DNA of 64,000 bases from Nibricoccus sp. (GTDB taxonomy: Bacteria > Verrucomicrobiota > Verrucomicrobiia > Opitutales > Opitutaceae): contig JASGHG010000001.1 in the NCBI GenBank assembly GCA_047602425.1, positions 4,480,001-4,544,000 on the forward strand, in the 5' to 3' direction. The position numbers and the translations under genes are program-made. The notes beneath the pieces are model-generated. The model saw nothing but the letters and a program-made list of their open reading frames with translations. It did not search any database and had not been told where the DNA came from. Positions 41,615 through 64,000 of this stretch are shown in pieces (the stretch's first letter is position 1; each line of letters starts with the position of its first letter).

Positions 41615-42919
41615 TCAGATCAAAAGGAGGGCCGGAGCCTCCAAAAGCTGTTTGAGCGCAGCGAGGAACTGGGCGCCGACGGCACCGTCGACCACGCGAT
41701 GATCGACCGAAAGGGTCAGCATCATGGTTTGGCCGATAACAATCTGGTCGTTTTTTACGACGGGCTTTTTTACCGTGGTGCCGACCGCGAGGATCGCGGC
41801 ATTGGGCGGATTGATAATGGCATTGAAACTTTCGATGCCCATCATGCCGAGATTGGAGACGCAGAACGTGCCGCCGGTGTAGTCGTTGGGCGCAAGTTTC
41901 TTGTCCTTGGCGCGCTTGGCGAGGTTTTTGGCCTCGTCGCTGATTGCGAAGACGGTTTTGAGATGCGCGTCGCGAACGACTGGCGTGATCAAACCATCTT
42001 CTATCGCCACGGCGAATGAGACGTGGGCAGCGCTATGGTGGCGGATGGCGGTGTTTTCCCACGAGCAATTGACCGCAGGCACCCGGCGGAGCGCCTCGGC
42101 GCTGGCCTTGAGAATGAAATCGTTGACGGAGAGTTTGACGCCGGATTTTTCGAGCGCGGTGTTGAGCTGGGCGCGGATTTCGAGAAGCGGGCCCGCGTCG
42201 ACTTCAATGTTGAGGTAGAAATGCGGAAGCTGCGTCTTCGATTCGACGAGGCGGCGGGCAATGGTGCCGCGCATGTTCGAGACAGGTATGGTTTTCTCTT
42301 CTTGAATCGGGCCTTTCGCGAACGAACTGGCGGACGGCGCGAATGACGCGCCGCCAGTCTGAAGTTTGGAAGTTGAAGTTTGAAGTTTGCCGCCGGTTGC
42401 AGCGGCGATTACGTCGGCGCGGACGATGCGGCCGCTCGGGCCGGAGCCCTGGATGGCGGCGGGATCGATGCCTTTTTCTGCCGCGAGTTTTTTCGCGAGC
42501 GGGGAAATTTTCACCCGCTGGCCGGGAGCCGAAGTGACCTCAGGATGAACGGCGGGAACCGCAGCCGGGGTTGGGGCGGGCAGGTGAGCGGGCGCTGGCG
42601 TAGAGGTGGTGGCTGGTTTGGGTTCGTCTTTGAAAACGGGTTTGGGCGCGCTGGGCGCGGGCACATCGGGGACGACTTCACCGGCTTTGCCGATCGCGCA
42701 AAGCGGAGCGCCGATGGCGACTTGTGAGCCGGCGGGGGCGTAGATTTTCAGGACGACGCCGTCGAAGAAGCATTCCAACTCCATCGTGGCTTTGTCGGTT
42801 TCGACCTCGGCGAGCATTGTGCCGCTTTTGACGGCGTCGCCTTCTTTTTTAAGCCATTTGACCAGCGTGCCCACGGTCATGGTGTCGCTGAGTTTGGGCA
42901 TGTCGATGATTTGAGCCAT
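41615..42919 (-). CDS. pdhC: Pyruvate dehydrogenase E2 dihydrolipoamide acetyltransferase
   Basis: Lipoyl motif ETDKA, E3-binding GSGPSGRI, DHRVVDG. Confidence 0.95.
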   Translation of the reverse strand: MAQIIDMPKLSDTMTVGTLVKWLKKEGDAVKSGTMLAEVETDKATMELECFFDGVVLKIYAPAGSQVAIGAPLCAIGKAGEVVPDVPAPSAPKPVFKDEPKPATTSTPAPAHLPAPTPAAVPAVHPEVTSAPGQRVKISPLAKKLAAEKGIDPAAIQGSGPSGRIVRADVIAAATGGKLQTSTSKLQTGGASFAPSASSFAKGPIQEEKTIPVSNMRGTIARRLVESKTQLPHFYLNIEVDAGPLLEIRAQLNTALEKSGVKLSVNDFILKASAEALRRVPAVNCSWENTAIRHHSAAHVSFAVAIEDGLITPVVRDAHLKTVFAISDEAKNLAKRAKDKKLAPNDYTGGTFCVSNLGMMGIESFNAIINPPNAAILAVGTTVKKPVVKNDQIVIGQTMMLTLSVDHRVVDGAVGAQFLAALKQLLEAPALLLI

Positions 42920-42923
42920 GGGA

Positions 42924-43010
42924 TGAAAAATGAAGAATCTAGAATTAAGAATGTAGAATTAGAAATGCGAGTACGTAGAAGCGGTTTTGGAATTCTACAT
43001 TCTGCATTCC
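42924..43010. repeat. Inverted heptamer array (nnAGAAT / ATTCTnn)
   Basis: GAAGAAT CTAGAAT TAAGAAT GTAGAAT ... ATTCTAC ATTCTGC ATTCC. Confidence 0.8.
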
Positions 43011-62431: not shown

Positions 62432-63259
62432 ATGTCCGCCTTCATCAATCTGTCTGCCTACAAATTCGCGCCATTGGAAAATCTGCCAGAACTGCGACGA
62501 CGGTTGCTCGATCTTTCCGTTGCTCGTGGTTTGAAAGGCACGATCTTGCTGAGCCGCGAAGGGATAAATCTATTCATTGCGGGGCTTCGGGCCGATGTCG
62601 ACGCGCTGGTTGCGGAAGTGCGAAGCGTTGCGGACCTCGAAGATCTTTCGCCGAAGGAAAGCGAGAGCGCCGAGCAGCCTTTCAACCGAATGCTGGTGAA
62701 AATAAAAAAGGAGATAATCGCGTTTGGCGTCGACGGGATCGACCCTGCGCGTCAGCCCGCGGCCAAGCTGCCTCCGCGCACGTTGAAGCAATGGCTCGAC
62801 GAAGGACGCGAGATTACGCTGCTCGACACGCGCAACGACTACGAGGTGCGTTTGGGCACATTTCGCGGTGCGCTGCCGGCGGGCATCGACAACTTCCGGG
62901 ATTTTCCCAACGCGGTTCAGCGCCTGAAGCCCGAACTAAAAGAAAGACCTATTGTGATGTTTTGCACCGGCGGTATTCGGTGTGAAAAGGCGGGGCCTTT
63001 CATGACGCGCGAAGGTTTCAATGTCTATCAGCTCGAGGGCGGTATTTTAAAATATTTCGAGGAATGCGGTGGCGCGCATTACGAGGGCGAATGTTTCGTT
63101 TTCGACAAGCGCGTGGGCTTGGATCCTGCGCTCAAAGAAACCGATTCGGTGCTTTGTTACGCCTGCCAGATGCCGCTGACCATCGAGGAGCAACGTCACC
63201 CGCACTATGTGCCCGACGTCTCGTGCCCGCATTGCCACGGGCGGGATAAGCGGGGGTGA
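62432..63259 (+). CDS. Rhodanese-related TrhO/YceA-family protein
   Basis: [44 protein letters not shown] and C-terminal Cys motifs. Confidence 0.88.
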
Positions 63260-63423
63260 AGGGCGCATCGCGTTGCGGCTCCAGCCGAGTCCGGTGCGGT
63301 TCCGGCGTGCTGCGGTTGAAGTCCGGGGAGCGCCGTCCCTACTCACACAGGGGAATACTTATGTAATTGCGGTTTATCTGCATTACGGCGGTGAAAATGC
63401 GTAAGTATTTGCTGTACGTCGTA

Positions 63424-63927
63424 ATTGCTTCGCTGTTCGGGGGCATTGTTTTGCTGTCAGGCTCAATTGCTAAGCTGTTTGTCTCAATTGCTGGGCTGTA
63501 CGTGCCGGTTGCTGGCGTGTTTGTGGTCGTTGCTAAGCGGTTTGTCCCCATTGCTTGGCTGTTACAGGGCATTGTTGTGTTGTTTGTGTGCGTTGCTGAC
63601 GTGTCAGCGTGCGTTGTTTGGCGGTACGAGGCGATTGTTGCGCGGTTTGTCTCAATTGCGGCGCTGTCTGTTTGCGTTGCTAACGTGTTCTGGGCGATTG
63701 CTGACGTGTCTGAATGAGTTGTTTTAATGTTTGAGTGAGTTGTTTCGTTGTTTGCGTGAGTTGTTTTGGTGTTCGAACGAGCTGTTTTCGTGTTCGGGCG
63801 AGCTGTTTTTCTGTTCGGGTGAGGTGCGAGGTTGTTCGGATGAGTTGTCTGGCGGTAGGGATGAGTTGTTTCGGCGTCGCGGTGAGGTGCGAAGCTGTTT
63901 GAGCCTGTTGCGACGATGTCAGCGTGA
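63424..63927. repeat. Array of 24 degenerate, indel-free 21-nt tandem units
   Basis: Every unit fits RNTGYNNNNNNGTNNNNNNNN, e.g. ATTGCTAAGCTGTTTGTCTCA and GTTGTTTCGTTGTTTGCGTGA. Confidence 0.9.
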
Positions 63928-63963
63928 GCTGCGGGAAGGGGTGTGGACGATGCGAGAGAGTGG

Positions 63964-63983
63964 GGGTCACGCTTCGGTGACCC
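63964..63983. other. GC-rich hairpin flanking the 21-nt array
   Basis: GGGTCAC-GCTTCG-GTGACCC, just after a possible minus-strand TGA at 63990-63988. Confidence 0.6.
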
Positions 63984-64000
63984 GCGGTCAGGCTCCGGCG

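Follow-up and report, generated by a model that had tools for sequence, protein, structure and literature searches.

Known Phased Repeat Arrays

Plasmid centromeres of the sopC/parC kind place a phased repeat array beside the gene of a small binding protein. Iteron origins carry 2–7 near-identical repeats of 17–22 bp, and their cooperativity depends on helical phase (PMC4980987). The BrickBuilt (23-nt) and MITE464/PgRS (41-nt) elements of Porphyromonas gingivalis are described as minisatellite MITEs (PMC4596501).

The window considered here, a whole stretch of 64,000 nucleotides from a Nibricoccus genome, contains near its right end a long array of variable 21-nt units. On comparison, the array appears to work in the manner of an iteron or centromere array, while falling outside both of these groups and outside CRISPR, MITEs and reverse transcriptase-linked systems. 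Unlike sopC and parC, it lacks a palindrome in each unit, its units are highly variable, and no Rep gene or Par gene (ParA, ParM or ParB) was seen among the examined neighbors. Like a CRISPR locus it is long, keeps a fixed period and includes variable parts, but instead of a constant repeat alternating with unique spacers it has 4 of 21 columns fixed and the variable bases interleaved between them. No Rfam match to a CRISPR family and no cas gene among the four flanking proteins were found, and the earlier note on this DNA was right that the repeat-spacer layout is lacking. A link to a reverse transcriptase or diversity-generating retroelement was rejected, as the single reverse transcriptase gene of the genome (924805–926679 of the chromosome, L169), which by eye we take to encode a group II intron protein-like enzyme, lies 3.6 Mb away.

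The likeness to the P. gingivalis elements is one of layout, both being intergenic, dispersed, multi-copy, tandem and free of spacers. However, BrickBuilt-type MITEs have a leader and a tail with IS5-type terminal inverted repeats (PMC4596501), whereas the flanks of the present array are unique in the genome and its class, unlike those MITEs, is tied to gene families across phyla. Plasmid iterons bound by Rep in F, P1, RK2 and R6K resemble the present arrays: they too are direct repeats, each spanning roughly two turns of the helix and carrying short contact motifs, and they lie next to the gene for the protein presumed to bind them (PMC4980987). They differ in that 2–7 near-identical units stand against 8–40 hypervariable ones here, and a winged-helix Rep protein at a single origin against Pfam-less helical rods and many chromosomal copies. 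That the array represents the iterons or centromere of a cryptic integrated replicon is extremely improbable: the two-turn spacing is alike and one match to the array motif is a five-unit array upstream of a Rep3 gene, but there are at least 24 units at about 58% identity rather than 2–7 iterons (PMC4980987), dozens of arrays occur per chromosome, and the examined neighbors include no replication or partition gene.

Architecture of the Array and Its Surroundings

Between 63424 and 63927 the DNA divides into 24 units of 21 nt, all distinct and free of indels, in which T3, G4, G12 and T13 are each invariant (24/24) and positions 1 and 5 are always a purine and a pyrimidine, respectively (24/24), just as had been described from the letters alone. 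The two sub-blocks and the G/T-richness of the + strand (73% G+T) that had been noted were likewise recovered: block 1 (63424..63696) has 13 units with the motif RTTGY-n6-GT on the G/T-rich + strand, and block 2 (63697..63927) has 11 units with the same invariant columns, of which 10/11 (units 14–24) end in YGA. Units are alike at 12–13 of 21 bases (about 58% identity), and Tandem Repeats Finder (TRF) detected the array as fragments only. Not one invariant column appeared across 2000 shuffles. In a genome-wide scan the array had a 21-nt contrast of 0.34, the second highest of the chromosome, where the genome mean is 0.002 (sd 0.027). The period is 21, and not 20 or 22, in all nine sub-windows as far as the insertion sequence described below.

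The array had been taken to end at 63927, but it continues in register through two degenerate units (63928..63969) into a third block (63970..64000 and beyond the window to about 64095), which has a different motif with two CGG patches 10–11 nt apart. A small hairpin reported at 63964..63983 is present; it spans the junction of blocks 2 and 3, however, and is tied to no gene. Nor does any gene end at 63990–63988, where a stop had been suspected: the neighbor on the right, beyond the window, encodes an IS481-family transposase and lies on the + strand. The array adjoins no gene on the minus strand, and the sequence beyond 64000 shows none for which the array could be a template or variable cassette, as had been suggested. 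The transposase belongs to an IS481-type element of 1314 bp, whose ends and 5-bp target duplication, read by eye, show it to be inserted in block 3 at about 64095; 2–3 further units lie beyond it. Four near-identical IS481-family copies (99.8%) are present in the genome, at 326704, 3860617, 4544088 and 4744821, and 5-bp target duplications occur at two of them.

On the left, an A/T-rich flank (63354..63409) contains an imperfect 15-nt inverted repeat and would correspond to the side on which the promoter of the partner gene sits in 5/6 of the gene-linked arrays with the same motif. Next to it lies the remnant of a dispersed element (63323..63342), which we take to be REP-like, whose core motif occurs 84 times in the genome and which is probably not part of the array. 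The left neighbor is a UPF0176/rhodanese gene (62432..63259, + strand), presumably TrhO-like, which is not linked to the array; a chromate transporter, this rhodanese, the IS481 transposase and an esterase are the four flanking proteins. A link of the array to the chromate and rhodanese genes was rejected because rhodanese orthologues in 3/4 same-genus genomes (the fourth gave no match) have other neighbors and no array.

Coding Potential

The earlier note had read three frames as heptads, one on the + strand and two on the − strand. These readings hold as described, but frame +2, with L-x-x-C heptads and one stop, had been missed. The 74 units of the window array and two of its paralogues have 21, 4 and 23 stops in the three + frames and 28, 0 and 18 in the three − frames, where column shuffling predicts 17.8, 16.8 and 17.1 and 25.5, 4.8 and 19.1; frames +2 and −2 thus fall short of stops. 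A position-specific dinucleotide null built on 125 units of five arrays, which may itself absorb real stop avoidance, matches the stop counts of all six frames, including that of the open frame −2 (1 vs 1.0), in which 4/5 arrays have no stop and the fifth has one. The pN/pS values of this open frame (1.11, 1.14 and 0.91 for the window array and the two paralogues) show no purifying selection, and the codons used at its invariant third positions account for 10% of Thr/Ala codons in the genome. Before 63572 the frame offers no ATG, GTG or TTG start, and it extends back into the end of the insertion sequence. Low pN/pS (0.56–0.71), similar to that of coding controls (0.49–0.79), is found instead in frames +3 and −3, which contain 23 and 18 stops, of all three types, in the 74 units. 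The possibility that the open minus frame is simply the C-terminus of a known heptad protein is opposed by these ratios and by a Pfam search of three array frames, which gave no match below E 0.01.

Column conservation in the window array and two paralogues has a power of 0.45–0.49 at period 10.5 and of 0.05–0.08 at period 3; the period-3 power of four coding repeats from this genome is 0.24–0.44. A period of 10.5 nt also equals 3.5 codons. Among arrays of the gene-linked class described below, 5/26 and 10/20 (two locus sets) are without any open frame, one array of 37 units has at least eight stops in every frame, and no amino-acid pattern is common across the class. Judged by these sequence signatures, the array is most likely non-coding, and the suggestion that constraint acts on the nucleic acid, with no single frame fitting, is borne out by the pN/pS ratios, the dinucleotide null and the 10.5-nt period.

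The opposing view takes the array to be the gene, or the relic of a gene, for a coiled-coil peptide built of heptads, with TxxQL in frame −3 or IxxN[ST] in frame −2, which is now diversifying or decaying. Such a peptide would suit the scarcity of stops in frame −2 and the low pN/pS of frames +3 and −3, and it can draw on two metagenome loci where the DNA motif is matched by TxxQL heptads that are truly coding, and on two arrays of genome G004 in which + frame 1 is open over 19–20 units. However, openness and constraint fall in different frames, and the three kinds of stop in the constrained frames tell against the recoded heptad protein once proposed. Most of the open frame is without a start codon, Pfam offers no match at the threshold given, the class has no shared amino-acid pattern, and variants with a period of 20 occur, for which a heptad code is impossible. 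A coding array of this kind is consequently quite improbable, though a heptad-coding ancestor may still lie behind the present one.

A Class of Arrays Linked to Genes

Similar arrays lie upstream of genes for two protein families, referred to here as A1 and A2. With kin loci counted as if they were independent, which they are not, an unbiased scan of periods from 5 to 63 found a best period of 21, 42 or 63 upstream of 51/67 gene loci, as against 5/66 downstream and 11/300 random stretches, in keeping with the co-occurrence of arrays and gene families that the earlier note had envisaged. Three more loci, in genome G591, have arrays of period 20, which brings period 20–21 to 54/67 gene loci in several phyla. 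With a fixed cut-off, upstream arrays were present at 30/40 and 22/27 loci of two locus sets and downstream arrays at 1/38 and 3/27, four genomes of one A2 locus set having been chosen for holding a pattern match. The genes from which the alignments started had themselves been located through arrays, and with 12 own-genome and two seed loci taken out the upstream count is 41/53. Weak or partial pieces, and matches with no locus, were left out of the linkage counts (2/18 A1 matches; 3/27 and 8/35 A2 matches).

The conservation spectrum of the 67 arrays peaks at period 10.5 (0.23 vs 0.10, z 11.2), without an excess at period 3 (z −2.2) and with weak A/T phasing of the bending or nucleosome-like type (z about 2). 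The period is kept across the class and the unit sequence is specific to each locus. Gene-linked arrays vary in strand and side, and such variation fits double-stranded DNA better than a leader RNA.

A single-stranded function, in which a transcribed but unstructured repetitive RNA or leader scaffolds the partner protein, is distinctly unlikely. The strong strand asymmetry (73% G+T), the promoter-like A/T-rich flank and the coincidence of the C/A-rich strand with the gene strand in 5/6 of the gene-linked arrays of the window motif are all compatible with it. The varying strand and side speak against it, and the 10.5 period suits B-DNA better than an RNA helix. Moreover, neither strand gives an RNA folding signal (z −0.66 and +0.62), the top 25 column pairs include no palindromic or complementary covariation within units, and a scan for sigma-70-type sites returned none. 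The repetitive non-coding RNA considered earlier is disfavored as a structured molecule by the same folding scores and by Rfam, where four weak matches all lie far below the gathering scores.

The window array shares with the class its 20–21-nt period, a locus-specific unit, two patches one turn apart and a non-coding character. No A1 or A2 gene lies directly downstream of it, however, and no A1, A2 or A3 profile match occurs within 4 kb, which makes it an orphan copy without a partner gene. The class of gene plus array is apparently undescribed, no account of it having been found in the literature searched, and the window holds only an orphan copy of it.

A four-unit pattern of the window motif has 85 matching loci among GTDB genomes, which belong to many phyla. 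An A2 gene adjoins 6/85 of these, in two phyla, with its ORF start 105–369 nt from the array and on the C/A-rich strand in five cases and the other strand in one; no A1 or A2 gene is found at the other 79/85, nor at 29/29 metagenome and 56/56 viral matches. Since most matches are without such a gene and some are plain coding repeats, the window motif alone is unspecific. The Rep3-linked match (L157, G197:C290) consists of five 21–22-nt repeats upstream of the initiator gene, ordinary iterons that match the motif by chance.

Orphan Copies in the Genome and Its Relatives

A search of the genome with the unit profile, of the kind the earlier note had proposed, uncovered three paralogue arrays, at 2.085, 3.867 and 4.823 Mb, which scored 97–118 compared with at most 5 for all other sequence and were the only own-genome arrays with window-like scores. 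All four copies of this motif type are intergenic, and the neighbors of the paralogues are unrelated. Paralogue flanks align poorly, no terminal inverted pair is found at the array, and neither the two flanks nor block 3 match anywhere else in the genome. From unit 16/17 onwards, 191 nt of block 2 are 94.8% identical to the paralogue at 4.823 Mb, while flanks and ends are not common to the two; the pattern of identity points to block exchange or copying.

Without any motif, a genome scan found 34 periodic segments, of which four lie in coding repeats, one has a 7-nt period, eight are directly upstream of small helical ORFs and 21 are without such a gene. Twenty of these 21 unlinked arrays, including that of the window, have no A1, A2 or A3 profile match within 4 kb, and at the remaining one a pseudogene of the partner lies on the far side of a transposase ORF. 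The separation of an A1 pseudogene from its array by a transposase ORF, seen at G000:C1:3986618–3989886, is one way in which orphans arise. Four partner genes of the genome are broken (G000:C1, 1770269–1770958, 3986618–3986980, 1276571–1276918 and 3647136–3647502), three by an in-frame stop and one by being split over two frames, and modules of array and gene therefore decay often. A DNA search of 61 relatives yielded, outside the own genome, only four short matches in three genomes. The exact three-unit pattern occurs in 2/201 family genomes, the own genome (G000) and G004 of the same genus, and the two window-type arrays of G004 are orphans too.

Such a distribution raises the possibility of a minisatellite without a job of its own, produced by slippage and gene conversion, which travels as a passenger or arises as a by-product of the spread of the module and of which the window copy is a leftover. 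In line with this, the position of the array is strain-specific, the 191-nt stretch is common to two copies but its flanks are not, 21 arrays of the genome are unlinked, an IS insertion has been tolerated, the unit sequence varies between loci, and REP-like motifs occur within about 210 bp of 7/21 unlinked arrays. Slippage alone, however, does not predict a period of 20–21 at 54/67 gene loci in several phyla. One register is held across three motif blocks, and units are about equally unlike at lags of 21 and 42 (0.519 and 0.524), yet four columns are fixed in 71–74 of 74 units. An array with no function of its own is thus considered unlikely, though it deserves to be taken seriously.

The Partner Proteins

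Proteins of family A1 are about 120 aa long and those of A2 about 215–240 aa, some of the latter with a C-terminal Ig-like domain; a carboxypeptidase-regulatory-like domain stands at the end of 3/5 long A2 members scanned. At E values up to 0.001 the A2 profile matches 9,857 clusters (50% identity); the A1 profile matches at least 709 proteins. Both kinds of gene have a patchy distribution and occur in several copies, A1 being present in 8/251 phylum genomes and A2 in 9/201 family genomes. No Pfam family and, by sequence, no solved relative was found for either family, and the Atlas clusters closest to the partner proteins, from Bacteroidota, Cyanobacteriota and Gemmatimonadota, are labeled 'hypothetical'. 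Among Atlas clusters that have a Pfam family, DUF6261 comes nearest to A2 (score 0.87). DUF6261 (PF19775) matches 0/107 A2 members, and a search of the own genome was empty, as were its controls, so that kinship of A2 with this family can serve as a lead only.

Models of partner proteins are all-helical (pLDDT 95 and 88) with a central helix of 54–58 residues. The fold search gave no Foldseek match at E 0.001, and the best Z values, 9.9 for A2 and 6.9 for A1, are within the range of common helical bundles; the probability of a relationship between the two families in hhalign is 2%. Four basic residues of A1 are near-invariant (R81, R104, R108 and K109), while A2 is not basic overall (median net charge −2). 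An antiparallel homodimer of A1 was modeled with a score of 0.74 (best control 0.00), 97% contact agreement between runs and pLDDT of at least 89, the mark for this score being one that 20/30 solved pairs and 1/23 single chains reach. If the model is correct, the dimer would form a rod with its invariant basic tails at either end. The 54-residue helix of A1 measures about 8 nm by textbook rise values, compared with about 7 nm for 21 bp of DNA.

The genome has one intact A2 gene without an array, at 373353–374048. In a quick tree it forms a clade with genes of G004 and G431 that likewise have no array (SH-aLRT 97), and this clade is sister to L051 (SH-aLRT 93 in the quick tree), which has an upstream array of the window type. 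G000 and G004 hold both an array-less A2 gene and orphan arrays, and G431 has an array-less A2 gene but no match to the exact motif pattern. Action of the 373-kb gene on window-type orphan arrays in trans is suggested by these sequences as a lead, rather than supported by them.

A Proposed Helix-Phased Lattice

The reading to which we give about even confidence is that the array is a non-coding double-stranded DNA lattice to which the partner rod proteins would bind cooperatively. A two-turn protein-binding lattice had been among the first suggestions for this locus and is the best reading of it. Each 21-bp unit would represent two turns of B-DNA with two short fixed patches about one turn apart, and all fixed patches would then face one side of the helix, leaving the bases between them free to vary. 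Arrays of the class normally lie 50–600 bp upstream of the gene for a predicted rod-shaped helical protein (A1 or A2), the presumed binder. This rod, about as long as one unit, may fill the array cooperatively, in the way that Rep loads onto iterons, and loading might either control the partner's own gene or build a nucleoprotein structure. The window copy may have been orphaned through loss of the partner gene, or through copying of the array away from it; the A2 gene at 373 kb, which has no array, could serve it in trans. We infer binding, the identity of the binder, cooperativity and any function of the orphan from phasing, linkage and models; the dimer model is of A1, whereas the window motif type is linked to A2.

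An extension of the lattice reading is speculative and rather doubtful. The rods would be molecular rulers that polymerize on two-turn lattices, and the lattices would be copied round the chromosome as loading sites, exchange unit blocks and be addressed in trans, the four window-type arrays being sites for the 373-kb A2 gene.

Partnership with a helix-phased array would provide the first testable function for the A1 and A2 families, namely binding to the array upstream of the gene. If true, it would represent a new kind of bacterial nucleoprotein lattice, in which the recognition sequences are locus-specific and fast-changing. Annotators should note that the 'heptad hypothetical proteins' frequently predicted on arrays of this kind probably do not correspond to genes.

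Further Observations

Several loci of the class have features of their own. At L131, L178 and L186 a 21-nt array lies downstream of the gene, L178 and L186 forming one clade. The 20-nt arrays of G591 (L177, L181 and L192) have phased A-tracts and lie upstream of divergent A2-like genes. The A1 genes of L096 and L097 are 53% alike; between array and start codon they have conserved segments in common, an inverted repeat among them, while their arrays differ in sequence. Six A2 genes of Bacteroidota (L170, L171, L174, L175, L179 and L182) have a conserved 9-base motif about 20–35 nt before the start codon, which is possibly a promoter or operator element. Elsewhere in the window, at 42356–42967, TRF reports short A/T-rich tandem repeats of 7 and 14 nt.
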